Of a stretch of DNA of 64,000 nt, positions 20,601-44,953 are shown piece after piece. Origin of the DNA: Lachnospiraceae bacterium (GTDB lineage: Bacteria; Bacillota; Clostridia; Lachnospirales; Lachnospiraceae); assembly GCA_024687205.1 (NCBI GenBank), contig JAILES010000081.1:5657-69656 (forward strand), in the 5' to 3' direction. The notes beneath the pieces are model-generated. The model had not been told where the DNA came from. It saw only the letters and a program-made list of their open reading frames with translations, and made no database searches. Made by a program: the position numbers and the translations under genes. Position 1 is the stretch's first letter; the number at the start of each line of letters is the position of its first letter.

Positions 20601-23600
20601 AAACAGATAATCCCTGTTCATATAACGTCTGCCGTTTATCACTATCGCCAGATGATCCTTCAGGTAATTGTTGACGTACTCTTTTTCCTGCTGCATTCTT
20701 TCGGCTTCCTGCCGTTTTCTTTCGGCTTCCTGCTCGGCCTTCTGCAGTTCAAGCCTTCGTTTGGTCTCAAAGTCAACATAGGCGGTATGTGCACTTCTCA
20801 TATGACGCAGCTGATACTGCATTTCAGCGAAGCTGTCATAGATACGCTGTTCCTTATCCGAAAGCTTTTTGCCGGTTCCGTTATCAAGCTTGTCCACGGA
20901 ACGGCCTACCTGCTGTACTAGTTCCTGCGAATCCTTTACAAGCTTGTCAAATGCCGCTTTCCTCTGTTCCGCATTAGCCGGATTCAGATAGTCGGTGTTC
21001 GAATAGAAATCATTTATCTGTGAGATATAGCTGTCCAGATCTCTCAGAGTCTTACCATGTACGGCATCGGAGCTTAAGCCCTCTTTTAAGAGACGTCCGC
21101 GCATCGTCATCAGCGCGCCTACACGCTCGGTATTTAAGAAGGCTCGTTCTATATCAGTCTGCGGTCCTCCTACGGTAGGCGCATCAGGGTTCGCGGAATT
21201 CTTACGCGCCTGATAACGCTGATACTCTGCCCTTGCCTCAGTTAATTCCTGCGCAGATAGAAATTCCTCGGGAGCAGGCTTTCTTGACTTTGCTTTATTC
21301 ATCCTTTCACGGAGTTCCTCTACTTCATTAAGATCTCCTCCGGCTATATCAGGCGAATAGAAGGCCTCTCCGTATCCTTCCATATACTCAAACATCCTCT
21401 GCCTGTCAGCAGGGCCTGTTATCGGAGTTTCTTCAAGCTTTTTGATGATATCGTCCATCACCTTTAAGGAACGGTTTCTCTCATCAAGCCACTGCCTGTC
21501 ATTCTTATCCTTCTTACTCTCGATCGTGTGCTTCAACAGCCTGCGCTGCACATATATAGTGCTCAATAAATTGATATCTTCAATGGGCCAGCCGTTTGCA
21601 AGCATGGCTCTCTTTCCTTCCATATCAGTCCATGCTTCTCCCGAACCCCTGGGGAAATGTGAAGATACTTCATAGAGTTCATTATGCAGATATCTCGGAT
21701 GTTCACTGTTGTCCCTCATTTTTCTTGCATATTCTTCTTCGGGAGTTCCCGGTATCCTGCTCTTAAATGCTACATCATCTATTCTGCGAAGACGTTTTTC
21801 AAGCTCATCCATTTCCGAGATCATCATCTTTCTGAGCATACGGTCGTCAGTATTGCTGAGTGTGCCGTCTTTCTTCATACGCTCATGTTCTGACATGATA
21901 ATTGCCGATCTCTTAGCTGCAAAAGCAGCCTGGGGCAGTTCAAGAGCAGGACTTCCCGCAGGATAGCCGATACATGCCAGTATCAGATCGTTGGTGAAAT
22001 CGGGAGAGTTTGCATCGATCTTGTCGGCATCGACAGCCCCGAGTCCTCCTAGCTGTCCGTATACTATCATGAACAGATTATTATTGAGTTCCATATCCAT
22101 CCAGGTGAGACCATCATCTTCCGTTCGCAGATAATCGGCATATACTCTCATGTAATCGGCATATACCGGATTGATCTTCTCCCAGCGGTCAGCGGTTTCA
22201 TAAAGCTTTTCTTTTGACCTCTTAAAGAAATCTTTTACAGCAGCAAGATTCTTCTTTCCTTCCTCATTAAGACTTCCGTCTGCCTTAGTACCTACGAGAT
22301 AATTGTACTGGATAGGCTGTTCCTTTGCTGTTATAGTCGACCATGCCCTCAGTCTGTCAATATCCTCAAAGGGCACTTCATCCCTGTCCTCATCATAAAA
22401 GAGATTCTTTATTATACCTGACGCCACCATGCCGTTTGTCTCGTCCTTGACTGCTTCCCTGGCTTTTTCATCTGTCATCAGGGTCCGGTAATTCACCGAC
22501 GGATCAAAGGAGACTATAGCCGGGAACTGGCAACGCAGTTTGAACAAAGCGGCGTAATACTTACCGCCCTCATTCTCCGGATTCGAAACTCTGATACGGG
22601 CATTATTCTTAATACGTTCCGCATAAGCAGGTTTGGCATCAAGAGGAATCGGCTTATCCTCCACCATGTTGCCGTTCTTATCCATCATATACGGAACAAA
22701 ACTCAGCTTCTTTGCGGGGTCGGCCATGGCCGTCATTATCGTTGCTTTTATAACCGTATCCAGATACTTCTTATCCGGATTCTGTGCTATGGCAGGATAT
22801 CCGTTGGCCGCCAGGTATTCCAGAGGCTTCTTTCCGTCTATGCGGAAACGGTCTGTCAGCGGTTCGCCTCTTCTCATACAGTAATCGTACTGTTTTCCGT
22901 ATCTGCTGCTGCCGGTCAGATGTCCGAGGACACGGTCAAAGGTCTGACGTGTTTCCTTCTGCTGTGCATCGGTAAGCGCATTAAGATCGGGCAGAGTCTG
23001 GGGCACTTCGGTAAGTTTTCCGCGCTGATCCCTTGCCTGATGCGGCATATGTATATAGCTTAAGTTAAACACCGGTGAGGTATCGAGATTTCCCTTCTCG
23101 ATAGTCTCCCTGTGGGCAGCGCTTTCCTTACCCGCCTCGGTTGCACGGTGTTCTCTCAATTTCTCATTTACCTTATCAAGATAAGGCTGCTTAAAAGGTG
23201 ACGGAGCGTTTCCGTCAATGTATGCTTTCAGCTCCGCATCCGTCGGTATGTTTTCCTTCGGAAGCGCCAGCATCGGATCCAGCAGGAAGCTGCCTATCGA
23301 AACTGCATCTATTGCCGTACCGGGTCTTACGCCACCCGGAGCTTTCATGAGTTTATCGATTTCCTGCAGATAATATTTCGCCAGTGCTCTATGCTGCAGA
23401 CTGTACATTTTATCGGACATGACTATCGTAGAGAGCATCTTCATACCCTGCAGTACATCCAGGGGCTCCCTCAGTTTTGAATACTCTTCCGTGCTTCCGA
23501 ACTCATCGATATAAGCCTGTCTTAAACGGTTGGGTTTCTTAGAGTCATATACAGGCGAATACTGGGAGAATAATTCAGTATTCTGCATGAAATCCTGAGC

Positions 23601-26600
23601 GTAAACTGCTTTGGAATAAAGTTTTGAACCTCCCTTTGTCAGTTTCTGTATATCGGCTGTTCCGTTAAAATCCAAGCCCTCATAAGCGGACATCTTAAAC
23701 TTCGTCATGGCTTTCTTATGGATATCCGCATAATAACGTGCACTTGCCTCGGCTGTGGCATCATCAACATCCGGTCCGAAAGGATGCCTCTCGAGATCAT
23801 CCATATATTTATCCACCAGCTGTCTCCTGGCATCCAGCGGCAGGCTGTTAAGTTTCAGCACATCATCATAGGTATTAAAGTTAAGGCTATGCTCCGTCGT
23901 TACGGTCTTTATCACTCCCTTTTCATCCCTGACGGGGTTGCCGTAGGCATCCGTTTCATTCTCGGTCACGGTATAGGTACATGAACCTTTACCCAGATAA
24001 TATGTACGCAGATCATCCATCATTCGCGCCGGAGCATCTTTTTTAAACATATCCGGAGTCACGCTCGTGTTTATTCTTCCCATGCGCTCAAGTACATCCT
24101 GAGCATCAAAATATCCGGGTACCTGAATACGGAGCTGCTTCGCCTCCATAGACTTCGCTTCCTTATCGGCAAGATCTTCCATAGAAGGAACATTGCCTGT
24201 CTTATAGAAGGCATCATCCTTTTCAAAAAGATCCAGCAGGGCTTCACCCATTTCCTGCTCTCTCTTCTGAGCCTCAAAGGCATTCCTTACAGCTCTGTAC
24301 TCATCGGAATATGCACCCCTGTTAAATCCTATCTCGGGAATATCGTGGTGTATCTCTCCTGCTCTTTCAAGAAGAGCAGCGAGCTGTTCGACATTTTTAA
24401 ATGATGATAGCTGCGGCGTATGGGACATAGCTTTTATCATCTGCGCTTTAAGGGTATAGAGCTGGCCCTTATCCGGCATGTCCGCATTTGCAGCTGTTTC
24501 ATTGTAAAGTGCCGAGCCATGATTATGGATGAAATTAAGCGCAGCCATCCTGTCGCCGGCATTCATTACCGGATGTGAATCAATGTAACGGCATATCTCA
24601 TCCATGGTACCGAAGGCTGTTTCAAGCTCCTGACGTTCCCTGCTGCCTTCTTCTTTATCCGCAATGGCATCCTTAAGCAGCTGACGCTTAGCATAGAAGG
24701 ACGCTATCAGATCCGTATCCTCAACCGGCCAGCCCATAGTGATGGCTGACTTTCTTCCTGCCAGATCCGCAAGCATCATCTTCGATCCGGGTTCCCCGTT
24801 TACGAACTTCTTCACCGCATCGGGTGATGTGAAGATCTTTGAAAGCTCCTGTTCCCTGTTCATCGCGCCTGCATTCCGACGCATCTCATTTATGCTGTTT
24901 TCCAGTGCATTGATCGAGTTCAGGATATCCAGCTTGGTATTAAGATCATCCGGGTTTGCTTTTCCTTCCTCACTGAATTTAAGGGCGGCTCTCATCCTGC
25001 TGTTAAGCTCCAATGCTGCATTAGCTGCTCCGGTCAGCGGGAAGGTTTTTCCCATACCCGCTTCATCGGTAAGTGTTCCGAAAACGGTATCCACTCCTTT
25101 GCTCATATCAAGAGAATCAAGCATGTCATCAAGCAGCTCGCAGTTCGTATTCACATACAGCCTGCCCTTTTCCTGTTTCTTTATATCAGCAAGTCTGAGA
25201 TTCTGTACTTCAGCAAACTGCTGCATTGCCTTATTGCGTTTTGCATCCGGCAGATCCTCATCAACGGCACCGGGCTTTACCGTCTGAAGCTGTGCACGTA
25301 TCTTTTCAGCCTTTGCTGACTCAGCTTTAATATAATCCTCATCGCTTACGGGCTTTGTGTGCTCAGCGGGATTCATCTGATAGAAGGGCTGCACATAAGC
25401 TTCGTATATCACTTCGGCATCCGCTGCCGGCTGTCCTGCAGGAAGCAGAGCCTTAAACTGTTCCTGCTGCTCAGGGGCATAGAACAGCTCCGGATCGATC
25501 ATTGCCTTCATGGCTTCATCCATCTGTGTCTTAAGCGCTGTCAGCTGTCCTTTGTCTGCCATACCTGCTGTGGCTACCGTATCGTTATACAGTGCAGTAC
25601 CGTAACTGTTTATGAAGTTTAAGACATCCTTTCTCTCCTGTGCGCTGCTGATGGGATGTGCATCAAGATGCGTACAGATCTCATTTACCGCACGGAATCC
25701 ACGTTCATACTTAAGTCTTTCAACTGAACCGGGAACCTTGCTTTCCGCTGCTGTCTTCAGCATCTCGCGTTTTACATAGAAGGATGCTATCAGATCCACG
25801 TCACGTACAGGCCAGCCGTTAGCCAGCGCTTTCTTTTTCGCACTCAGTTCCGCAAGCATGGTTTTTGATCCGGGACAGCCGTTTATAAAACGGTCAACTT
25901 CCTTCGGATCCGCAAATGCGGATTCAACCTGTCCTCTTGCATTTCCGTTTGCGATATTGCTGCGCATGGTACGTATCTGTGTTTCCAGCAGATTCATCTT
26001 TTCTATGAGCAGTTTGCGATTATCTGCTTCGGCTGCTTTCAGTTCATCGCCGGACTGAGACCTCATGGTATTCTGTATTTTCTGTATCTCGCCGGCTGTC
26101 TGAGCCGCTTCGATAATAGGGAAATTCCTGAGTCCCTCAAATACCTGCGAGGGCGTACGCTTTGCACCTGCCTCAAGATTAAGCTTATCCGTCAGGGCAT
26201 TAAGGGCGCTGAAACTGTAGTTTCCTTCCTTTCCGCCGAGTCCGTGCAGCACTTCATTTCTGTTTATCTGATATCTTACAAAGGCAGCCTCCTGCAAACG
26301 CCCCTGCTTTTCAAGACCTGTAGCCAGCACGGAAGCGTCATTAGCAAGCTGCTCCCTGTATTCTTTCTTTATATAGTCCTCACCGTCCAGACCGTCTATG
26401 ATAAAATCACTGCCTAATTCCTTCATCCTGTCCAGATGCGCGTCAAGATAATCAGCACCGAAGGATCTGAATACGCCGGGCATGAAAGCATTAAGCTGGG
26501 AAGCTCCCTTCTTTATCGCATCATAAGCAGCCTCTGCCTGCTCCTTTTCATTCAGAGGCTTTACCGCAGACATCTTCTCCATATGAGGCTTTGCCTTGGG

Positions 26601-29279
26601 TATGATCCTGGGTTTCTGTTCCACTATATTCAGAGCCTTATCATAGGTATATGCCACAAAAGAAAGCTCCGCTTGTGGATCAGCCATGGCTTCCAGAAGA
26701 AGGGTTTCCATTGCGGTCTCTCTATCTTTTCCTTCAAGCCCGGGATACTTACTGGCAACTATCTCGGATATCTTCCTTCCGTTAATGCGATAACGATCCA
26801 TTGGATCTTCATTCTTTAATCCGGCCAGATCTGCCTGGAAGGTATAGCTGCTTATCATAGGCCCAAGCAGCTGCTGGAAGCAGGTATGTATCGCCTTTTT
26901 CTGTGCATCACTGAAGCCTTTGATATCCTCGGCCGTGATGTCTTTCTGAGGTACTTCTCTGAGGTCCACGAAGTCCAGATTATATACTCTCGCAAGATCG
27001 ATCTCCCGCTTATTGTAGTTTCCGAACATTGTTCTTACTTCTTCGGCAGCCTCCTCGGCCATCCACTCTTTTGCAGGGACTTCAATATTCCTGTGCAGGT
27101 ATTCTTCGGTAAAAGGTGAGGGACCCTTGCCTTCGAGATAGTCCTTCATTGCAGCATAGGAAGGCGCTCCCTCCATCGGGAGCTTTTTATCCTCTTCGAT
27201 ACTCTCGGAAATAACTTTGGTAACGCTGCGCATATAATGCCAGAGCGAAGGATCGATCTCTTCCGGTTTTTTCCCTTTGATATTACTATAGATGTTCTCC
27301 AGATAAGTAAGGGCAAGAGCCTGTACATGAACCGGGTATTCCGGACTGCTTGCCTTAACAGACAGATCCTGCAGCTGGTTCAGTACCTGCAGCTGTCCCA
27401 TCATTTTTGCATACTCTCTTCTTCCTCCGAAGGCGTCAAGATAAGCCGCTTCACCCTTGCTGTTCATGACACTCTTGGACATGATATTGGAAATATCCTG
27501 GGTACAGTCCATTACAAAATGAGCCATCATGCCGAGTTCATTTTTCTGTCCGGCTGTTGCTTTCAGCTCTTCGGGATTCCTCGGATCAAAATCAGGTATG
27601 GGATTTGAAAGGATGCTCTTTATTGCCTTCGCATCTTTGTTTCCGTACCAGGCTGCATTATTTTCCACTACCGACTGCGGCAGATCCGTACTCATGACCG
27701 GATGTGCCGCATAGGCTTCAAAGAATTCCTTTGCAAGCGCTTTGCGTTCTTCATCGCCCGCCTTCTCCAGCTCTACCGCTTCCATGAAGCTGAGTCCCTT
27801 CTCAGCCATTATGTATCTCAGCATATCACTGTATGCGCTTAAATCTCTGCTCAGTTCGCCGCTTGCTTCTGTTGCCGCTTCCCGCTCCGCCTTCAGCTCA
27901 TCATAGAACCATCTGTTTTTCAGTTCCCTGATATCATAGAGCCTGTTATCTCTCTCCCGGGCCTCTTCGGCGGCAGCCTGCTGTACCGGTCCCTCCTCCT
28001 GCTGGGGTGCATTTGCGGCCGCTTCCCTCTCTTCATCAAACTGTGATATCATCTGACCTAAGTCGGCACTTCCCATCAGGTCTTTTTCTTCCTGAGGAAG
28101 CTTCCTTTCAAGAATACGGTCAAAGGTATAGAGGCCGAATTGCATGCCTGAATCCTGTGTCATCAGGAACTTCTTCTCATAGCCCTCTTTCACCAGCTCC
28201 CGCATTTCCGTAAGCAGCGCTTTCCTCTCTGCCTCTGTCCTTATTACCTTGGTCTCTATCTTCTTCCATGCAGTATCCAGTTTCTTAAGATACTCCCTCT
28301 CACCGGGCCTGAAAATCGGTTTTTCTTTAGCTTCTCCGGTGCTTGTGTTGTAATATGCTTCCGAGAAGAGATTTTCTCTTGCGATCTTAAAGAATGAAAG
28401 GGCATTCAGATCCTCTATAGCCCAGCCATTACGGATACCGCTAACCCTGGCTTCTATATCGGCACGGACCGTTCCGAGCCCTCTTAAACCGTTACGCTGC
28501 AGCGTTTCCACGGAGTTGGATATATGTTTGTTTATCTCTGCGGCTTCGGGCGAATTGGGCACAACCTTATCCATCTTTTCAAATGCATCCAGCATTCTCT
28601 GCCCATGATCAAGTATATCTTTTCTCAGCTGCAGATCCTTCTCTGCCGTAAGCGTCCCCTTATCCAGCTCATCAAAATACTCCAAATGGGAGCCGATGGT
28701 TTTATTGCACTCTATCATGGCCTTTGTTATGGGATACTTTTCATCAAGTATGCGTATATCTTCCCTTGTTTTGTCTTTGAGTACTATAGGCATGGAAGTT
28801 ATCATTCCTGCAGTCAGACGTCTGGTATTCAGTCTCAGATCGACTTTGTTGACCGTCCATCCCCGTACTGCTCTTTCTGCCGGATCGATCATTACAGCAT
28901 TAATAACATCCCTCATCGAATCGTCACCGGGCTGATAGAAGTCATCCAGCTTCTGCTTGACCTTTTTTACATAATTACCGAATCTTTTCTTATATCCTTC
29001 AACATCAACACCCTCACGGAAAACTATTGCCTTGGCGGAGACTGACGATATACAGGGACGTGAGGTTCCGTTTTCACCTCCGAGATCATATATCTCTTTT
29101 CTTCTCTGCATTGACGAGGGATCTCCGTAAAGGAAGATCGCATCCTCGGATAACATCTCCTCCGGACCCGCGGAATTGCCGGCAGATACCCAAAATTCTC
29201 CAACATCATCAAAAATGCTTTCTTCGAGCTTTTTCACCGTATCCTTATCGAGTTTATTGTTTTCGATCTTTAAATTCAT
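14649..29279 (-). CDS. Giant 4876-aa highly charged, predicted alpha-helical protein with internal repeats; function unknown
   Basis: 14.6-kb uninterrupted ORF with RBS AGGAGG. No signal peptide or TM segment evident. Repeated GW[PA][IV][ER]D motif x4 and duplicated blocks. Confidence 0.9.
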   Translation of the reverse strand: MNLKIENNKLDKDTVKKLEESIFDDVGEFWVSAGNSAGPEEMLSEDAIFLYGDPSSMQRRKEIYDLGGENGTSRPCISSVSAKAIVFREGVDVEGYKKRFGNYVKKVKQKLDDFYQPGDDSMRDVINAVMIDPAERAVRGWTVNKVDLRLNTRRLTAGMITSMPIVLKDKTREDIRILDEKYPITKAMIECNKTIGSHLEYFDELDKGTLTAEKDLQLRKDILDHGQRMLDAFEKMDKVVPNSPEAAEINKHISNSVETLQRNGLRGLGTVRADIEARVSGIRNGWAIEDLNALSFFKIARENLFSEAYYNTSTGEAKEKPIFRPGEREYLKKLDTAWKKIETKVIRTEAERKALLTEMRELVKEGYEKKFLMTQDSGMQFGLYTFDRILERKLPQEEKDLMGSADLGQMISQFDEEREAAANAPQQEEGPVQQAAAEEARERDNRLYDIRELKNRWFYDELKAEREAATEASGELSRDLSAYSDMLRYIMAEKGLSFMEAVELEKAGDEERKALAKEFFEAYAAHPVMSTDLPQSVVENNAAWYGNKDAKAIKSILSNPIPDFDPRNPEELKATAGQKNELGMMAHFVMDCTQDISNIMSKSVMNSKGEAAYLDAFGGRREYAKMMGQLQVLNQLQDLSVKASSPEYPVHVQALALTYLENIYSNIKGKKPEEIDPSLWHYMRSVTKVISESIEEDKKLPMEGAPSYAAMKDYLEGKGPSPFTEEYLHRNIEVPAKEWMAEEAAEEVRTMFGNYNKREIDLARVYNLDFVDLREVPQKDITAEDIKGFSDAQKKAIHTCFQQLLGPMISSYTFQADLAGLKNEDPMDRYRINGRKISEIVASKYPGLEGKDRETAMETLLLEAMADPQAELSFVAYTYDKALNIVEQKPRIIPKAKPHMEKMSAVKPLNEKEQAEAAYDAIKKGASQLNAFMPGVFRSFGADYLDAHLDRMKELGSDFIIDGLDGEDYIKKEYREQLANDASVLATGLEKQGRLQEAAFVRYQINRNEVLHGLGGKEGNYSFSALNALTDKLNLEAGAKRTPSQVFEGLRNFPIIEAAQTAGEIQKIQNTMRSQSGDELKAAEADNRKLLIEKMNLLETQIRTMRSNIANGNARGQVESAFADPKEVDRFINGCPGSKTMLAELSAKKKALANGWPVRDVDLIASFYVKREMLKTAAESKVPGSVERLKYERGFRAVNEICTHLDAHPISSAQERKDVLNFINSYGTALYNDTVATAGMADKGQLTALKTQMDEAMKAMIDPELFYAPEQQEQFKALLPAGQPAADAEVIYEAYVQPFYQMNPAEHTKPVSDEDYIKAESAKAEKIRAQLQTVKPGAVDEDLPDAKRNKAMQQFAEVQNLRLADIKKQEKGRLYVNTNCELLDDMLDSLDMSKGVDTVFGTLTDEAGMGKTFPLTGAANAALELNSRMRAALKFSEEGKANPDDLNTKLDILNSINALENSINEMRRNAGAMNREQELSKIFTSPDAVKKFVNGEPGSKMMLADLAGRKSAITMGWPVEDTDLIASFYAKRQLLKDAIADKEEGSRERQELETAFGTMDEICRYIDSHPVMNAGDRMAALNFIHNHGSALYNETAANADMPDKGQLYTLKAQMIKAMSHTPQLSSFKNVEQLAALLERAGEIHHDIPEIGFNRGAYSDEYRAVRNAFEAQKREQEMGEALLDLFEKDDAFYKTGNVPSMEDLADKEAKSMEAKQLRIQVPGYFDAQDVLERMGRINTSVTPDMFKKDAPARMMDDLRTYYLGKGSCTYTVTENETDAYGNPVRDEKGVIKTVTTEHSLNFNTYDDVLKLNSLPLDARRQLVDKYMDDLERHPFGPDVDDATAEASARYYADIHKKAMTKFKMSAYEGLDFNGTADIQKLTKGGSKLYSKAVYAQDFMQNTELFSQYSPVYDSKKPNRLRQAYIDEFGSTEEYSKLREPLDVLQGMKMLSTIVMSDKMYSLQHRALAKYYLQEIDKLMKAPGGVRPGTAIDAVSIGSFLLDPMLALPKENIPTDAELKAYIDGNAPSPFKQPYLDKVNEKLREHRATEAGKESAAHRETIEKGNLDTSPVFNLSYIHMPHQARDQRGKLTEVPQTLPDLNALTDAQQKETRQTFDRVLGHLTGSSRYGKQYDYCMRRGEPLTDRFRIDGKKPLEYLAANGYPAIAQNPDKKYLDTVIKATIMTAMADPAKKLSFVPYMMDKNGNMVEDKPIPLDAKPAYAERIKNNARIRVSNPENEGGKYYAALFKLRCQFPAIVSFDPSVNYRTLMTDEKAREAVKDETNGMVASGIIKNLFYDEDRDEVPFEDIDRLRAWSTITAKEQPIQYNYLVGTKADGSLNEEGKKNLAAVKDFFKRSKEKLYETADRWEKINPVYADYMRVYADYLRTEDDGLTWMDMELNNNLFMIVYGQLGGLGAVDADKIDANSPDFTNDLILACIGYPAGSPALELPQAAFAAKRSAIIMSEHERMKKDGTLSNTDDRMLRKMMISEMDELEKRLRRIDDVAFKSRIPGTPEEEYARKMRDNSEHPRYLHNELYEVSSHFPRGSGEAWTDMEGKRAMLANGWPIEDINLLSTIYVQRRLLKHTIESKKDKNDRQWLDERNRSLKVMDDIIKKLEETPITGPADRQRMFEYMEGYGEAFYSPDIAGGDLNEVEELRERMNKAKSRKPAPEEFLSAQELTEARAEYQRYQARKNSANPDAPTVGGPQTDIERAFLNTERVGALMTMRGRLLKEGLSSDAVHGKTLRDLDSYISQINDFYSNTDYLNPANAEQRKAAFDKLVKDSQELVQQVGRSVDKLDNGTGKKLSDKEQRIYDSFAEMQYQLRHMRSAHTAYVDFETKRRLELQKAEQEAERKRQEAERMQQEKEYVNNYLKDHLAIVINGRRYMNRDYLFARYAGNKAELEDIYKENIPVALEVLEIDGKLVAKDIITERQRLHDERVQTQKAAQEKVTAERGKRRDGKPSEDLYADGVTDLFENERKRIMEERRADMDVAEKQKKGKVQRINRINDDDDLMKRSVKQIAELDYDSMAKAKTAYEEIKADTSPEMIQKIVKRGIEYTTAMNRYNRVVRTVTATMSNEELLERIRTKWPDWYQENLARAVQTLTNPADIRAKINVRLTDSLTPEECHGFLKEISDRLYHDDKQRLKKEMLETKTLTELELDEQVSHILHDRVEELREGLKTDDTLNENEKREYLEALEYADEFVTLADPHVKDEYFSHRRIQEEVAGDSSKKDLADGFNEIEDIELKQVVNDLMSNAEDFVANGISPVLEDGFEKMMDLKLGLGENNLNSFATMLTMMEEMGMQMSNDFPGGTVESRGFAEVSRTRYELIDAVNNGDRQAIINAKRNYEKARADMDKLFAFADDEKNFSKYSVAGNIDATRQLNVPLEYAKDYYNNSKINSVHLLFSALKWSGVSIQQFKEDPNAFIETVVRKNLEMCDPEIRLRNKSAGQILGEFGNEDDFERGAFQSEVMGIQANLTRIEEALTMMDDDPERRKKNYTNYKIRDQFRANVLLHHVNNNPYRNKERKNEVQQLLSIVDMADLENNRGRMLTNKPLDANGRPVPKITAADYVAGLGPHYNGYSALSTRADEILRDARNIAGKKFGAVSFMMNRQAALSMLLVKRAADRGKPGFDLLEDEIMNAAQYYDQIRAAHPEYALPALSDEQRKTFEENAKQFKTQMNAAESKLTVEQKHAIEERKNANSVAERHTAQHVTELNNELKREEERFVNSYNLLETERKEAAAEHNNAHVSFMVDQKRVLVSNMRSWLIEQTKAGNVTTDYARKRISEILALKDTDSAKMPEYGLQDKSGKNTHAGRLQEAKEIKELTTRPYEHDERKIRELLELEKNEDPFEKLERLQQEREERMQQAQQELARRQEENARQINLRNENLARVLPEELTQRLIQRFNERQDTIAVSETMRTDKTDLSEPEAYRTARINENDAEDRYRYLYEEIKKSISADTLLNVLTDTLGANEAAALFTKLKNSVPDSSLLGRLTSEDREHYFAAVVASLPEEERDRLIDLDNAYKPIRSYDFSSMPDDSLENALEFESQVDHPQAGRVREMLKEAGDDWKKMSGGGTQEELDEFRNVLYEANGLITKAKPAVKNADLELMTVDTKRYNAVIDLDHKKGSEKEENSFMQDLYETRKGITVTKEDRAEDVRRTSKVNPVLDPRYVQNVAAILKKMEEMKLFKPNSPAEETSKIYSFHRVADAQKAVAEALKADMSVEANRKKLSTAVDEMKNIQRETDELMRMAKNSFSGKDYMDNLDNVRQDGIPWRYARDRVSASQLNAVWQFGNMLKANNISVDEFAAHPDEMIEKMKTTAISEGTSLKALGKGKSIGEMTAYAANGYYNGVITSKNSNLVGKYLRSIGGIIEAEPEVYDPARKSQNRYLFRQNIYGYVSQFGVTALNNVMHTKDAFKGKDKDSIDALKAVVTMPENEFDPDVILVKVPYNADFSYRKPFNYAEYLKSKAGNAAAGAEDPFLTAQEGRLEKILKDAAKAQIRMEAAADNTSTDPGISSMSFDPNVYEPFRLVQARQQALMELLILKQTQPQYQETQQVKNLENELLNMAERYEALRKDNPELNMPELTAEQKKQLETTKKNYLELKNNSEKLMDKLEDQIAKKVKKDEKTFVDEMKELNEKIRKVNERIGRRDVKIAAADEKMHRARLSLDDIMGLEAYEERRPLVQEKSALLKERELLEKQLESLRVSRMRSISEQYKDGKLPKKYAEERLKQLDEGRDNERLPELFGDPAHNAADKKSRSSFLRDNLLNLRGANINLKAAKTDDPEKWRQWNHLFRTEDVFEVIDNNAVAPAQERKRSIKFDQMLKDEKNANKDERKGRKSVNIKNNEPEIKPDEKKRLSLQPGNKK

Positions 29280-39198: not shown

Positions 39199-41139
39199 TC
39201 AAAGCTCATCCAGCCACAGTTTTGCGGATGCGTCACTCGGCATGCGCCAGTCCCCTCTGGGCGAAAGCGTGACAGAACCCACCTTAGGTCCGTCAGGCAG
39301 GCAGCTGCGCTTAAACTGCTGCGAGAAAAACCTCCCAAAGAATTTCCTTCCCGCATCCCTCACTTCATCTTCTGTCAGTTCGGGGTAAGCACTCAGTGCA
39401 TATGCCGCTGTCCTTGCGGGTTCGAAACCGTAACGCAGCGTATAATAAAGAAAGAAATCATTCAGATCATACTTGCCTATCTTTTCCTCGGTCTTCTGTA
39501 CGATCACACCGTCTTTGTTCGGTGTCAGTTCAGGTGTTATAGGCGTATCACAGATATCCAGCAATACTTTCTTAAGCTCACTGTCACCGCAGAACTGCGC
39601 ATAGGATCTGCAGATAAACTTCACCAGGGTTTTCGGTACCGATGCATTTACCGCATACATGGACATATGATCACCGTTATAGGTGCACCAGCCCAGAGCC
39701 AGCTCCGAAAGGTCCCCGGTACCTACGACCAGAGCATTGTTCATATTTGCGGCATCCATAAGCAGATAGGTCCTCATTCTGGCCTGAGCATTTTCATAGG
39801 TCACATCACCCTCACCCATATATCCCGGCTCATGTCCCAGCTGATCCAGATGCAGATCCACAGCTTCCTTGATCGCTATCTCATACTCTTCATCTGCCAG
39901 TATCCTCATCAGTTTCTTTGCATTCTCATAGGTCCTGCCGGTAGTATTCCCTTCATTTGGCATTGTGTATGCCAAGATGCGTATATCTTCTGCCAGCTTC
40001 TTTGCTTCTGCGCATACTATCAGCGCAAGCGTGGAATCCAGTCCGCCGGATATGCCTATCACCAGATTCTTTATACCGCTGGCTCTTACTCTCGTAGCCA
40101 GTCCGTTGGCCTGTATCTTAAGTATCCTCCTGCATCTTTCATCCCTCATATTCTCATCGCCCGGCACAAAGGGATTCCGAGCTATAGGATGCTCCTCTTT
40201 TTTCAAAACAGCCGCAAGTTCTTTTATATCTGTCTCATCTGCGCCTGCTGCCTGCATACGCACTTTCACTCTTCTGCAATCCGCAGTATCTTCATTATCA
40301 AAAGTATTCTGCCTTCTTCTGTTATGCATAATGAAGCATAGATCGATCAATGCAGACTCGGTATTCGGATATTCGGGAAAAATACTCTCCTTCAGCACAC
40401 TGCCGTTCTGTGCGATGATGCTGTGTCCCGAGAAGACCAGATCCGTGCTGCTCTCATGTGTACCTGATGACGCATATATGTATGCACAGTAACATGAACC
40501 GCTTTGCTGTTTTACAAGTTCCCTTCTGTATTCCTGCTTGCCGATCAGTTCATCCGATGCCGAAAGATTTGCAATGATATTCGCCCCTGCAACAGCCGCA
40601 TGTGTGCTCGGTTTATCAGGCACCCACAGATCCTCACACAGTTCCACCCCTAGCACAGCTCCGGAAACAGTATCCTCCGCAAGGATATCACTGCCGAAAG
40701 GTATCTCTTCATTTCCTATCTTTATGCTCTTTCCTTTCAGCCCCTTCCCCGATGCAAACCAGCGGCATTCATAAAACTCTCCGTAATTGGGAAGATAAGT
40801 TTTGGGGATCAATGCTTTTATGCTGCCCTGTGACAGCACTGCACCGCAGTTATAAAGACTGTTTTTATAACGTAATGGCACTCCGGTCACCACCGTCATA
40901 CCCGTACCGCAGGTTTCCTCAGCCAATCTCATCAGTGCCTTCTCTGCCTGATCAAGCATCAGTTCGCTGCCAAACAGATCCCCACAGGTGTATCCGGTGA
41001 TACTCAGTTCAGGGAACACCATGAGTCCGCAATCTTTATTCTCTTTTATCATCGTTATGATCTGTTCGGTATTGTACTTCACATCTCCGATCTTTAACCC
41101 CGGCACAGCCGTTGTTACTTTGATAAGCCGGTTTTTCAT
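39199..41139 (-). CDS. nadE: Glutamine-dependent NAD+ synthetase
   Basis: Nitrilase domain (FPELSITGY, YNC, KTYLPNYGEFYE.RWF, ELCEDLW) + GISGGLDSTL, ENAQARMR, GTGDLSELALGWCTY. Start set from RBS AAGGAAGGTG. Confidence 0.93.
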   Translation of the reverse strand: MKNRLIKVTTAVPGLKIGDVKYNTEQIITMIKENKDCGLMVFPELSITGYTCGDLFGSELMLDQAEKALMRLAEETCGTGMTVVTGVPLRYKNSLYNCGAVLSQGSIKALIPKTYLPNYGEFYECRWFASGKGLKGKSIKIGNEEIPFGSDILAEDTVSGAVLGVELCEDLWVPDKPSTHAAVAGANIIANLSASDELIGKQEYRRELVKQQSGSCYCAYIYASSGTHESSTDLVFSGHSIIAQNGSVLKESIFPEYPNTESALIDLCFIMHNRRRQNTFDNEDTADCRRVKVRMQAAGADETDIKELAAVLKKEEHPIARNPFVPGDENMRDERCRRILKIQANGLATRVRASGIKNLVIGISGGLDSTLALIVCAEAKKLAEDIRILAYTMPNEGNTTGRTYENAKKLMRILADEEYEIAIKEAVDLHLDQLGHEPGYMGEGDVTYENAQARMRTYLLMDAANMNNALVVGTGDLSELALGWCTYNGDHMSMYAVNASVPKTLVKFICRSYAQFCGDSELKKVLLDICDTPITPELTPNKDGVIVQKTEEKIGKYDLNDFFLYYTLRYGFEPARTAAYALSAYPELTEDEVRDAGRKFFGRFFSQQFKRSCLPDGPKVGSVTLSPRGDWRMPSDASAKLWLDEL

Positions 41140-41158
41140 TTTTCTCACCTTCCTTATT

Positions 41159-43735
41159 TCATTTCGAAAAAGCCATCAACAGATGTTCATTTGCTATATC
41201 GTTATAAACCGCACACTTGCGGGAACTCAGATCATATACATGAACTATATCGCTGAGTATTTCCTTGTCCGCGAATTCTCCGACGATATCAGGGAAAGCT
41301 TCCAGTTTATCCGGAGAATAGTGTATTGTTTTTTCATTATGAAATACTGCAGTATAAAGTATCTGCGCTTCCACCAGATCCTGGAAGATATGGCTTCCGT
41401 ATGACAGCTCCGGATTATATCCCGCCTTTGTTTCTTCCGTCTCGCAGATGACTTCAAAAGCACTTATGTCCGAAAATGAGGTAGGTACTCCCAGCTCGGG
41501 AGAAGAGGTTCCCACTCTTCCCGGGACTATCAGCATCAGATGTTTGTTCAGCTCACGATAATGCCAGCTGATCTTTGAGATCAGTCTCGCTACCAGATCC
41601 TTTTCCTTATAAGGCATGTTGTAATACTTAACGGGATCCACAAGAACAATGATATCCAGCTCAGTGGTCCTGCACATTCCCATGGATGCTCCTCTGCTCT
41701 CAAGCAATATATCTTCTTCTTTTATCCCGGCAGGTACTACGGTTCCTCCCACCGTTTTCTGTACCTGCAGCGGCCTGCATTGCAGCAGGTCTACGGAGTA
41801 TTCACCGTTTTCAGAGATATTGATCGTGAATTCGGTATCAACCGGATATTCATATTCTTCCTGTATACAGCGAAGCATCCTTCTCATTTTTTCCATCAGT
41901 TCCTTATTTGCCACAAGGCCTTTACAGGAGATGAACTTTACCTGACGGCTGATCCCTCTTTCGTACAAGCGGTTCTCTGCTTCATAATCATGCTCCAGAA
42001 GTATCTTGTCCAGATACCCCGGCATATCCTTTTCTATCTCATCCAGAGGAAATCTTTTCAGTGAACGCTCCTGCATATTTATCACTTCAGCCTTCCCCTG
42101 GGAAAACTTATGCTTGTCCGCTGATGATGAATAGGAGGTTTTTTCCGGCATATCCAGATTGACTATCCTCGGATATGAGCCCTCTGTGCGGTCTACCGCC
42201 GAGGTTCCGAGTCCCATCACCAGCCTTAACATACCTGCAGTCGGATCGCTGTCCTTCATGATCCTGTAGGGACTGTAGGAATAACCCACACCCGCGGCAC
42301 AGGGCATGTAATTCGTTCCGTAATAGGATCCTGACACACGCTGTATCAACAGTGCCATCTGTTCATCTCTCTTATCCAGTCCGCGTCGTTTTCTGTAATC
42401 AAGGGCCGACATACTCATCGAACTTGCATATACTATCTTTATTGCCCGTTCAAATTCCTCAAGTCTTTCTTCCATGCTGCCGCGGTTTATGCAGAATACC
42501 GATTCATATTTACCGGCAAAAGCATTTCCGAAGCCATCCTCCAGTATGGAACTTGAGCGTATGATATAGGGATCCTGTCCGTAATAATCTATGATCCTTA
42601 CAAACTGTTCCCGCATCGCATCTGAGAAGCTTCCTTCCATGATCTTTTCCGCAAACTCGGCCGCAAGTGTAAAGTATCCCTCATCCGTACGCTGTTTTAT
42701 CCTCATATCCCAAAGGTTATTATCAACTATGTAGGTATAATACATATCCGAACCAACATAAAACGAATCGTGGGGCTCCAATACTTCAGCTATATCTTCT
42801 TCCTTATTTCTTATGATCGCTCTTGCCAGCAGCATGCCGCAGGCCTTTCCTCCTATCATTCCGGTTCCTACCATATGGTCTCTTACCGCAAAATAGTCTT
42901 CAGGCGTAAAATGCTTCTTTACCATTTCGCGCATCTTCGCATCCCGGGTCATCATGATATTGCACATCGACGTACAGTCCTCGCTGATATCCATTCCGTT
43001 TTCTCTCATAAGTTTCACACGGTTGAAGAAGCGATCCCAGGAATCGGAATACTGTTCCTGTGCCGAACGTTGCGCCGCACCCAGTGTCTGGTAAAACCTG
43101 CTTGATCTGACACCATCCAGTATCGGCCTGAACTCGCCGTTCTCCGGATCATAGGTATGCGGAAGGAACATGGTATCGGAATTTCTGTTCCAGACTTTTT
43201 CGGGACGCACATAGATATTCTTTTTGTCGGAATATACATCAAAGAAAAGCTGCGTCGTATTCAGTATCTTGTTAATAGCCTGTACCGAGTGTTTTCCCCT
43301 GATGATGGGAAAGAATGCAACTGTATCAAGTATGAAGAGAAAGGGACAGGTCACCCTGAAGAAATTGCCCATCATAAGGTCAGTAGCCCAGGCGGTCTGC
43401 AGTTCAGACAGACAGTCAAACACATAGAAGGCATCCTTTCCTTCTTTCTCTATCACATTATGGATATCTACGGTGAAATTCTCAAAGCGGTGGGAGAGCG
43501 CCACTTCGACGGTTTTGATCTCGGGACGGTCTTCTACCAGCCGCTCATGACTGGCAAAACGGAAATAAATGATGTTACGTTTATCCTCTATGGCCTGCTT
43601 TACATAGGGTTCCATAAAAAGCTTAAACTCGGACAGCTCCGACACACGCCACACCACGTTATCTCCGAGTCTGATATTATCAAGGGCTGTATCCATCTCC
43701 GGTATCCCGCTCTTTATTCTGTCAAAAGCTGCCAT
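41159..43735 (-). CDS. PEP/pyruvate-binding (PPDK_N-like) domain protein
   Basis: GMIGGKACG, IRSSSILEDGFGNAFAGKYESVF, LLQCRPLQ. No phospho-His domain evident. Start MAAFD after RBS GGAGGT. Confidence 0.8.
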   Translation of the reverse strand: MAAFDRIKSGIPEMDTALDNIRLGDNVVWRVSELSEFKLFMEPYVKQAIEDKRNIIYFRFASHERLVEDRPEIKTVEVALSHRFENFTVDIHNVIEKEGKDAFYVFDCLSELQTAWATDLMMGNFFRVTCPFLFILDTVAFFPIIRGKHSVQAINKILNTTQLFFDVYSDKKNIYVRPEKVWNRNSDTMFLPHTYDPENGEFRPILDGVRSSRFYQTLGAAQRSAQEQYSDSWDRFFNRVKLMRENGMDISEDCTSMCNIMMTRDAKMREMVKKHFTPEDYFAVRDHMVGTGMIGGKACGMLLARAIIRNKEEDIAEVLEPHDSFYVGSDMYYTYIVDNNLWDMRIKQRTDEGYFTLAAEFAEKIMEGSFSDAMREQFVRIIDYYGQDPYIIRSSSILEDGFGNAFAGKYESVFCINRGSMEERLEEFERAIKIVYASSMSMSALDYRKRRGLDKRDEQMALLIQRVSGSYYGTNYMPCAAGVGYSYSPYRIMKDSDPTAGMLRLVMGLGTSAVDRTEGSYPRIVNLDMPEKTSYSSSADKHKFSQGKAEVINMQERSLKRFPLDEIEKDMPGYLDKILLEHDYEAENRLYERGISRQVKFISCKGLVANKELMEKMRRMLRCIQEEYEYPVDTEFTINISENGEYSVDLLQCRPLQVQKTVGGTVVPAGIKEEDILLESRGASMGMCRTTELDIIVLVDPVKYYNMPYKEKDLVARLISKISWHYRELNKHLMLIVPGRVGTSSPELGVPTSFSDISAFEVICETEETKAGYNPELSYGSHIFQDLVEAQILYTAVFHNEKTIHYSPDKLEAFPDIVGEFADKEILSDIVHVYDLSSRKCAVYNDIANEHLLMAFSK

Positions 43736-43755
43736 CACCCTACCTCCGATCCGAC

Positions 43756-43799
43756 AAAAAAAGGGCGCTCCATCCAAACGGATGAAACGCCTTTGCTTC
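43756..43799 (-). promoter_or_regulatory. ANTAR-like hexaloop hairpin overlapping an intrinsic terminator (leader of the PEP-binding gene)
   Basis: GAAGC-AAAGGC-GTTTC overlaps GGCGTTTCATCC-GTTT-GGATGGAGCGCC-C-T7. Confidence 0.65.
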
Positions 43800-43812
43800 A
43801 AGCTCCTATTAG

Positions 43813-43841
43813 ATACTATCATTTATCACAGCGGATTGCAA
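43813..43841 (-). promoter_or_regulatory. SigA promoter of the PEP-binding/nadE operon
   Basis: TTGCAA, 17 nt with TG extension, TAGTAT. Confidence 0.6.
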
Positions 43842-43903
43842 GATGTGAATTAAGAAAAGTCTTGCGTTTCGGACTTAAAAATGTTAGGATTTATACGATT
43901 TAC

Positions 43904-43943
43904 GAAACAAAGGCGTTTCATCTTATCGGATGGGACGTCTTTT
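43904..43943 (+). promoter_or_regulatory. ANTAR-like hexaloop hairpin overlapping a terminator stem (leader of the alarmone synthetase gene)
   Basis: GAAAC-AAAGGC-GTTTC overlaps the 14-bp stem AAAGGCGTTTCATC-TTATCG-GATGGGACGTCTTT-T. Confidence 0.65.
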
Positions 43944-43963
43944 GTGTTATGGGGGACAGCAAA

Positions 43964-44953
43964 ATGATCTCATTAAACGATTATCTTTATTCAGGTGATA
44001 CGGTACTTAAGATACTGCTGCGTTATTCGGATGATCTGAAAAAAGAAGCGATAAAGAGCAGCAATGCCATAGACCTTGCTCACAGCAACTTTCTGATCCA
44101 GATCATAGAGCAGCTGGAACATACGGACTTCCTTACCTCACAGTCCAACAGGATCAAAGAGTTCTATCTTTACATGACTCAGAAATATCCTTTTCTTGCA
44201 TTCACCTTTAAAGGCAGGATCAAGTCCCTTATACGTGCTGAGGAAAAATTCAATGCCTATGTGCTTGAGTATATCTATGAGTACTACAAGACCAACGGAA
44301 GGTTTCCGACTGATACGGAGATCAAGAGCAATATCAACTGTTTCAGGGATCTGATCGCATACCGCATAGTGATCTCGCTACCGGTATGTCATGTATCTGC
44401 GGAAGAAAGCCTCGAAGAACAGGAGACAAAATACCTGTATGAAATAGCAGATATACTGCCGGCTTTTCTGGAAGAACGCGGTTTTACACCCGAACTCTCC
44501 GGCTATCATGGACAGCCGGCGACAGGACCCTTAAGCGAAAACGTCCGTCAGTATTACAGAGATTATGTACGCACGCCCCGTCCGTCGGGTTACCGTTCAC
44601 TTCATATCACTTTTTATGATAATCATGCGAGATGCTATACGGAAGTACAGCTTAGAACCAAAGACATGGATGACTTTGCCGAGATCGGTGCAGCCAATCA
44701 CTTCGGTTATGAGAAGAAACAGGAAGAACACAGGGTTAAACGTGATATAATACAGCCCGGTGAATGTAAAGTTTTTGATGAAGCATATGAAAGGCTGATC
44801 AAACTGCTGGAACTGGACCTGGCAAATGTCAACGTCAACATGTTCAAGGCTTTTAACAACCAGCTGATCAATGACGGCTGCGGTCTTTTCAGAGGCAGAC
44901 AGATACAGCCTTTCGAACACTTATCAAGATTTCAGTATGATCCGATATCATGA
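43964..44953 (+). CDS. RelA/SpoT synthetase-domain protein (small alarmone synthetase-like), 329 aa
   Basis: GRIKS, RDLIAYRIV, SGYRSLH, EVQLRT, ANH..YEK. ATG 43964 after GGGGGA; the track's 43157 start is an antisense overlap. Confidence 0.85.
   Translation: MISLNDYLYSGDTVLKILLRYSDDLKKEAIKSSNAIDLAHSNFLIQIIEQLEHTDFLTSQSNRIKEFYLYMTQKYPFLAFTFKGRIKSLIRAEEKFNAYVLEYIYEYYKTNGRFPTDTEIKSNINCFRDLIAYRIVISLPVCHVSAEESLEEQETKYLYEIADILPAFLEERGFTPELSGYHGQPATGPLSENVRQYYRDYVRTPRPSGYRSLHITFYDNHARCYTEVQLRTKDMDDFAEIGAANHFGYEKKQEEHRVKRDIIQPGECKVFDEAYERLIKLLELDLANVNVNMFKAFNNQLINDGCGLFRGRQIQPFEHLSRFQYDPIS

Follow-up and report, generated by a model that had tools for sequence, protein, structure and literature searches.

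The window, a 64,000-nucleotide stretch of a Lachnospiraceae bacterium genome, contains two divergent genes separated by a 228-bp intergenic stretch (43736-43963; Table 1). On the minus strand, a PPDK_N protein gene is followed by nadE in a predicted operon. The label "PEP-binding" given to the PPDK_N product in a preliminary description of this DNA has to be replaced, as the product is a PPDK_N (ATP-grasp) protein. Its matches to the PEP synthases of NCBIfam are weak and partial, and a sequence search of the PDB returned no relative. NadE matches NCBIfam NF002730 with 763.6 bits (cut-off 473). On the plus strand, the RelA/SpoT homologue aligns with the GY(Q/R)S(I/L)H...E(I/V)Q(I/L)RT block of Rel synthetase domains and has relatives at 72-94% identity in Lachnospiraceae, Ruminococcus, Fibrobacter and a spirochaete metagenome-assembled genome (MAG). 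Elsewhere in the window, positions 14649-29279 of the minus strand form one open reading frame of 4876 amino acids.

Both transcripts leaving the intergenic stretch carry the same short element. The preliminary description had placed a GAA[AG]C-AAAGGC element on each divergent arm, and we confirmed it: GAARCAAAGGCGTTTCATC is present at 43781-43799 (minus) and 43904-43922 (plus), with a chance expectation in the window of 0.03. The exact 16-mer core GAARCAAAGGCGTTTC (GAA[AG]C-AAAGGC-GTTTC) occurs just twice in the whole 3.28-Mb genome, once on each arm. When two mismatches were allowed, genome-wide matches to GAARCAAAGGCGTTTC were as numerous as those of a reversed-pattern control.

In the RNA, each element is predicted to fold into a small hairpin with an A1/G4 hexaloop, and each hairpin overlaps the 5′ arm of an intrinsic terminator, as the preliminary description had proposed. 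The 5′ arm of the plus-strand terminator includes the loop and the 3′ arm of the small hairpin. In its U-tract, which is weak (UUUUGUGUU), CTTTT is followed by TGTGTT. On the minus strand, the terminator-like hairpin at 43791..43764 is followed by the T-run CTTTTTTT. At both sites, and likewise in 40 sites from relatives, the terminator 5′ arm takes in the loop bases and the hairpin 3′ arm. Because the loop GGC and the hairpin 3′ arm form the foot of the terminator, the two folds are mutually exclusive, and since the terminators are calculated to be far more stable than the hairpins (Table 1), termination would be the default state. The resemblance between the two window leaders extends to the terminator sequence and is not confined to the hairpin.

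The window had no Rfam match at the gathering threshold, and filtering by E-value gave chance-level matches only. An apparent match to the plant microRNA precursor MIR6224 (window 43763-43940) is spurious and weak, with 28.6 bits where the gathering score is 171. The intergenic region scores as one long hairpin because the two leaders are inverted copies of each other.

Table 1. Features of the divergent locus, of the other predicted leaders and of the ANTAR gene pairs. Positions are those of the window unless a contig (C) is named.
Feature	Position	Strand	Details
NadE, glutamine-dependent NAD+ synthetase, second gene of PPDK_N operon	39199..41148	-	Pfam CN_hydrolase and NAD_synthase
858-aa PPDK_N (AMP/ATP-binding, ATP-grasp) domain protein	41159..43735	-	Pfam PF01326, 148.6 bits
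Ribosome-binding site of PPDK_N gene	43747..43743	-	GGAGG
Intrinsic terminator, minus leader	43754..43794	-	GGCGUUUCAUCC GUUU GGAUGGAGCGCC, then CUUUUUUU; 12 pairs, 7 GC; -20.8 kcal/mol
Predicted antiterminator hairpin, minus leader	43783..43800	-	UGAAGC[AAAGGC]GUUUCA; 6 bp including one G-U; A1/G4 hexaloop; -4.1 kcal/mol
Promoter-like site, PPDK_N-NadE operon	43813..43841	-	TTGCAA (43841..43836), 17-nt spacer, TAGTAT (43818..43813)
Promoter-like site, RelA/SpoT-like gene	43862..43890	+	TTGCGT (43862-43867), 17-nt spacer, TAGGAT (43885-43890)
Predicted antiterminator hairpin, plus leader	43904..43919	+	GAAAC[AAAGGC]GUUUC; 5 bp; A1/G4 hexaloop; -2.5 kcal/mol
Intrinsic terminator, plus leader	43909..43948	+	Stem 43909-43942, 15 pairs, then UUUUGUGUU; -16.9 kcal/mol; centroid structure
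Ribosome-binding site of RelA/SpoT-like gene	43951-43956	+	GGGGGA
329-aa RelA/SpoT homologue, putatively small-alarmone-synthetase-like (SAS)	43964..44953	+	Pfam RelA_SpoT, 50.7 bits
Regulon leader, gltB	C19		
Regulon leader, gdhA	C122		Pattern scan
Regulon leader, amt-P-II (glnK) fusion	C81:16604-16650	-	
Regulon leader, asnB	C81:21892-21938	+	
Regulon leader, Peripla_BP_6 amino-acid-type binding protein	C35		
Regulon leader, aspartate aminotransferase	C48		Pattern scan
GlnA-like and ANTAR pair (L009)	C19:22685-25840		
GlnA-like and ANTAR pair (L010)	C103:158154-161294		

Promoters and the number of hairpins

The two genes had been thought to share one divergent promoter; we find two separate, back-to-back promoter-like sites, each with its own leader. 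Promoters were scored on 12 consensus positions with bonuses for the spacer, and a score of at least 9 was taken as a good sigma-70 promoter. The minus-strand site scores 9.0 (8 of 12 positions), with 12 nt between its -10 box and the hairpin; the plus-strand site scores 8.0 (7 of 12), with 13 nt in between, and its boxes are also kept in two related loci (L011 and L012). Good promoters accompany 37 of the 53 motif sites that we compared, and in 33 of these 37 the distance from the end of the -10 box to the hairpin is 5-16 nt (mode 11-12 nt). With the -10 box so close, the hairpin would start about 0-8 nt into the RNA, if transcription begins where the promoter consensus predicts.

Canonical ANTAR targets are defined by two tandem hexaloop hairpins, P1 and P2, whose spacing is constrained (Ramesh et al., 2012), an arrangement that these sites do not have. 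A second A1/G4 hexaloop hairpin lies within 45 nt upstream at 7 of the 53 sites (13%), compared with 12.5% in shuffled sequence, and is thus not enriched; no conserved hexaloop follows the hairpin across the sites. We also considered whether a P2 hairpin could lie inside the downstream terminator and rejected this idea, as the apical loops there vary from 3 to 8 nt and lack A1/G4. Since the promoters abut the hairpin and a second upstream hairpin is no commoner than in shuffled sequence, the site consists of a single hairpin. The preliminary description, which saw no evident P1 at either arm, was right on this point, and as judged from promoter and hairpin predictions the sites are single-hairpin attenuators in which the canonical P1 is absent.

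Tandem arrangements of whole attenuator units, each with its own hairpin and terminator, also occur in relatives; examples are L059:6127/6189, before an amt-P-II gene, and L020:5048/5097, before a cytidylyltransferase-PPDK_N operon.

Covariation and the nitrogen regulon

The small hairpin is real. Among 52 distinct sites aligned on a six-pair stem, 75% of the cells are paired, compared with 64% in column shuffles, none of which (0/500) reached 75%. The covariation score of the stem is 0.50, against 0.26 in the shuffles and 0.06-0.17 when the partner is slid by 1-3 columns. The three innermost pairs were part of the selection of sites; the fourth, which was not selected for, forms in 40 of the 52. 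A scan that did not require a stem gave stem-length counts that decay geometrically to 3 bp (1320, 495, 182, 67), followed by more stems of 4 bp (51) and 5 bp (31) than the decay would give. The arms vary and yet stay complementary, as in GAAAC/GUUUC, AAGC/GCUU, GAC/GUC and UACC/GGUA, with G-U pairs among them.

An unbiased sample was provided by 30 family loci chosen only by the terminator pattern CAAAGGCG..CGCCTTT; as a search by terminator alone matches many generic bidirectional terminators, it was used for this purpose only. Stems of at least 3 bp were found ahead of asnB, gltB (2), type-III glutamine synthetase (6), amt (3), P-II, pyrG (2) and a circularly permuted ATP-grasp gene, and one was ahead of a homologue of the PPDK_N protein in the window. 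Loci with stems of 2 bp or less were all coding sequence or generic terminators, with the exception of L112 (2 bp), which lies ahead of a GS-I gene.

All eight sites of this genome carry the A1/G4 hexaloop. Because the curated set was picked by its loop pattern, the invariance of the loop in that set arises partly by construction. In addition, A2, G5 and C6 of the loop may be conserved for the foot of the terminator rather than for reading by a protein.

Which genes carry the leader in this genome? For a test independent of our pattern scan, a covariance model (R1) was trained on 40 sites taken from other genomes; it encodes only the terminator pairs and contains no sequence of this genome, nor the orthologous leaders at L012, L024 and L041. 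Searched against the 3.28-Mb genome, R1 gave six matches at E<=0.01: both window sites and the leaders of amt-glnK, gltB, asnB and the Peripla_BP_6 gene. The window matches are C3:49557-49602 (window 43901-43946, plus, E 0.0024) and C3:49413-49458 (window 43757-43802, minus, E 0.0085). A pattern scan for the leader architecture, which also picked up the amt-glnK, gltB, asnB and Peripla_BP_6 sites, added the gdhA and aspartate aminotransferase leaders. The nitrogen regulon that the preliminary description had predicted is thus borne out, with the motif class ahead of gltB, gdhA, amt-glnK and asnB. The genome-wide search for the exact 16-mer that it had suggested returned only the two window copies; what defines the regulon is loop and architecture together, which recovered these four. 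A general scan of the genome for A..G.. loops was dominated by coding-sequence noise. We regard the RelA/SpoT-like synthetase gene and the PPDK_N-NadE operon as new members of this regulon.

The leaders of amt-glnK and asnB are separated by 5 kb and oriented divergently, which makes them a second "twin" pair in this genome, and their promoters and leaders are near-identical (cttgacaaa..gggtgtag(ta/ac)t..cataaaGAG(A/G)C).

Across relatives, what recurs is an architecture: a promoter, a few nucleotides, and C-AA[ACG]GG[CAU]-G on a stem of 3-6 bp whose 3′ side opens a terminator. The GAAAC/GUUUC arms themselves are not conserved upstream of relatives of the RelA/SpoT-like gene. In relatives, the motif also precedes type-III glutamine synthetase, P-II and pyrG genes. 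The pyrG gene, which encodes CTP synthase, a glutamine amidotransferase, has a motif leader at L093 and L114 (family genomes G145 and G122). Motif leaders were also seen on the circularly permuted ATP-grasp gene (L046, L098) and, in Ruminococcus, on a Peptidase_C26 gene (L054-L071).

Candidate readers of the hairpin

If these hairpins compete with terminators, what reads them? An A1/G4 hexaloop is the determinant recognized by ANTAR proteins (PMC3369931), and the genome encodes two such proteins, of 193 and 182 amino acids (PF03861, 53 and 50 bits; cut-off 27.3). The search for an ANTAR protein that the preliminary description had called for therefore found two, each encoded directly downstream of a Gln-synt_C (GlnA-like) gene in a NitR-type arrangement; the same gene order occurs at L121, L122, L124 and L129. 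Nearly all of the 150 family genomes, by contrast, carry just one ANTAR gene. Of the two copies here, the one on C103 has the family-typical EAHRY(I/M)QK, and the one on C19 is more divergent. The ANTAR protein aligns with Rv1626 and EutV through the ANTAR helices, and its three-helix ANTAR domain is C-terminal, following a receiver-like domain.

ANTAR genes were found in 134 of the 150 family genomes, and R1 matched 113 of these 134 compared with 3 of the 16 ANTAR-negative genomes (Fisher p=1.8e-7, a value that treats related genomes as independent, which they are not). In at least seven genomes (G018, G020, G022, G025, G116, G145 and G147), the motif and the ANTAR gene share a strand, with the motif about 2 kb upstream, which puts it in the glnA-ANTAR operon leader. 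In the genome studied here, we saw no motif ahead of the two glnA-ANTAR operons or a third glutamine synthetase gene. The reader of the hairpin is most likely the NitR-type ANTAR protein, a reading that draws on co-occurrence, gene order and the loop itself. The ANTAR-type interpretation of the preliminary description is supported in this way, with binding predicted from the motif.

Our preferred reading is that the leaders of the nitrogen regulon are single-hairpin ANTAR antitermination switches, to which we assign a probability of about 0.77. In the proposed mechanism, each divergent transcript would open, within a few nucleotides, with a 5-6 bp hairpin that is closed by a C-G pair and bears the AAAGGC hexaloop. 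Left alone, the RNA would adopt the terminator fold and transcription would end about 45-50 nt in. Under nitrogen scarcity, the NitR-type ANTAR protein, encoded right after the GlnA-like gene and probably released or activated by the GlnA-like partner, would bind the hexaloop hairpin as it emerges. Binding would block the terminator and allow read-through into the RelA/SpoT-like gene and the PPDK_N-NadE operon. As the same switch is predicted on amt-glnK, gltB, gdhA, asnB, the aspartate aminotransferase gene and the binding-protein gene, both operons would belong to the ammonium-assimilation regulon. Several observations weigh against this reading: P1 is missing, the ANTAR proteins differ from EutV at Tyr164, the two glnA-ANTAR operons of this genome show no motif of their own, and the U-tract on the plus strand is weak.

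The alternative that survives best, though we consider it unlikely, is that the leaders are protein-dependent nitrogen attenuators read by an RNA-binding protein other than ANTAR, such as an unrecognised P-II or glutamine synthetase partner. The sites lack the P1 hairpin present in all characterised ANTAR targets, which are dual hairpins (PMC12591593), and R1 also matches the three ANTAR-negative genomes. In addition, both ANTAR proteins of this genome (..DAHRY.. and ..EAHRY..; alignment to 6wsh), and likewise those of four relatives (EAHRYIQK), have His at the position of EutV Tyr164; this His could take the place of Tyr164 in stacking on G4. Against a different reader, an A1/G4 hexaloop on a short stem that overlaps a terminator is exactly an ANTAR half-site (PMC3369931, PMC8934654), the motif strongly co-occurs with ANTAR and is found repeatedly in glnA-ANTAR leaders, and the three exceptional matches are weak (E 3e-4 to 4e-3), with one of the genomes 76% complete.

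Could the RNA act without a protein? Very small riboswitches embedded in terminators are known, for example, the HMP-PP thiS motif, and the lack of an Rfam match leaves room for an undescribed class sensing a metabolite such as glutamine or ammonium. However, a 3-6 bp stem with a hexaloop offers no pocket-forming internal loops or junctions, the terminator stems are plain and vary freely, and the presence of the motif tracks the ANTAR gene, all of which make a minimal riboswitch very improbable. We give equally little credence to the idea that the leaders are unregulated, with a 5′ hairpin that stabilizes the mRNA and a leaky terminator whose only effect is low basal expression or the release of a small RNA. 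Stem-loops at the 5′ terminus do stabilize mRNAs in Firmicutes, and the weak U-tract on the plus strand would suit a leaky terminator, but this idea does not account for a loop that is conserved, a competitor stem that covaries, the confinement of the motif to nitrogen genes across many genera or the link to ANTAR. The proximity of terminator to promoter had also led us to consider NTP sensing or reiterative transcription, of the pyrG kind, or a plain 5′ stabilizer; these candidates were dropped once a nitrogen regulon emerged and the competing stem proved to covary.

Least probable of all is that the GAAAC-N6-GTTTC palindromes act in the DNA, as operators bound by a dimeric repressor immediately downstream of the two promoters, with incidental terminator overlap: although a 5-6-5 inverted repeat at about +6 to +25 of both promoters sits at a typical roadblock position, the arm sequences change while complementarity is kept, including through G-U pairs that are meaningless in DNA, the conserved part is the asymmetric AAAGGC loop, always on the transcribed strand, and a terminator sharing the 3′ arm follows every site.

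Known ANTAR systems and the three-gene module

The single-hairpin ANTAR switch that we favor is closest in its RNA to the eut leaders of Enterococcus faecalis, which are read by EutV/EutW (PMC3369931, PMC8934654). In both, a short A1/G4 hexaloop hairpin contributes its 3′ strand to the terminator 5′ arm, and both genomes encode an ANTAR protein. However, the eut leaders have P1 and P2, whereas here one hairpin lies about 0-8 nt from the predicted 5′ end. The regulators also differ, as the proteins described here have a degenerate receiver, lack an adjacent kinase and have a GlnA-like gene as partner instead. His replaces Tyr164 of EutV, and the loop is more constrained, as C-AA[ACG]G[GA]N-G.

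Work on EutV speaks both for and against the sufficiency of one hairpin. Only one hexaloop is in contact with an ANTAR dimer at any moment, and EutV can bind P1 or P2 on its own (PMC8934654); the sequence described here would fit the minimal single A1/G4 hexaloop motif for an ANTAR dimer (Walshe 2022, PMC8934654). For co-transcriptional antitermination, P1 and "cycling" of the dimer have been proposed to be necessary, with P1 serving in recruitment (PMC8934654), and the 2022 EutV-RNA structures led to the suggestion that single-hexaloop sites might perhaps be used only where the transcribing polymerase sets no time limit (PMC8934654). In the literature searched, we found no description of natural single-hairpin ANTAR attenuators.

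In gene content, the nearest likeness is to NitR of Clostridium saccharobutylicum, which antiterminates glutamine synthetase/GOGAT genes under nitrogen limitation, according to the account in PMC6316151, which cites Stutz et al. (2007). As that account gives it, the two systems share a glnA-ANTAR pair and antitermination of GS/GOGAT-type genes under nitrogen limitation (here as predicted). Relative to the same account, the regulon described here also includes the RelA/SpoT-like gene, the PPDK_N-NadE operon, asnB, gdhA and amt-glnK, and the genome has two glnA-ANTAR pairs. The predicted ANTAR nitrogen regulons of Desulfotomaculum, Pelobacter and other bacteria (Ramesh et al., 2012, PMC3369931) and GnfR of Geobacter (PMC2995071) likewise have targets upstream of P-II, ammonium transporter and glutamate/glutamine synthase genes. 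Those targets were found and described with dual-hairpin models, whereas the sites in this genome have a single hairpin. 

The pairing of a nitrogen-stress regulator, here presumably ANTAR, with a gene of the (p)ppGpp-synthetase family has a counterpart in Escherichia coli, where NtrC activates relA (PMC4066584). In E. coli, NtrC is a sigma-54 enhancer-binding protein that acts at initiation on the gene for a long RelA; the switch described here would act as an antiterminator at the level of RNA, on a small RelA/SpoT homologue.

The three genes at this locus recur together. Genes for the RelA/SpoT-like, PPDK_N and NadE proteins are linked in varied orders, including SAS-PPDK-NadE, NadE-SAS, PPDK-SAS and divergent (window 39199-44953; loci L011-L090). 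The three proteins are 72-95% identical across Lachnospiraceae, Ruminococcus (isolates FD-1, KH2T6 and AR67 included), Fibrobacter and a spirochaete MAG, and all carriers are from rumen or gut. The module looks like a horizontally spread functional unit, to judge from identity and linkage. The leader GAAACAAAGGCGUUUCAUCC..GGAUGGAGC accompanies it in four loci (L011, L012, L024 and L041), and a near-identical terminator, CAAAGGCGTTTCATCC..GGATGGAGCGCC, is also present in another family genome (G147:C53).

We advance more tentatively, at a little less than even odds, the broader proposal that one hexaloop hairpin at the extreme 5′ end suffices for co-transcriptional ANTAR antitermination, that nitrogen directly sets the levels of the RelA/SpoT-family nucleotide pyrophosphokinase and of the PPDK-like protein and NAD synthetase, and that the three genes, moving as a group among rumen Firmicutes, Fibrobacter and spirochaetes, may form a nitrogen-starvation pathway not described before. 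ANTAR antitermination is a textbook two-hairpin mechanism, and the sufficiency of one hairpin, if true, would contradict the requirement for an upstream recruitment hairpin. The one-hairpin version heads a whole nitrogen regulon and occurs in most of the 150 Lachnospiraceae genomes sampled; with an RNA of about 45 nt and one protein of about 190 amino acids, it would be a simple natural system in which to ask what the second hairpin is for.

Finally, in rumen Firmicutes the predicted switches would bring a homologue of alarmone synthetases, together with a glutamine-dependent NAD synthetase, under the control of nitrogen, paralleling the NtrC-relA coupling of E. coli by way of an RNA switch (PMC4066584), and would provide a regulatory clue to the role of a conserved three-gene module that appears to have spread horizontally.
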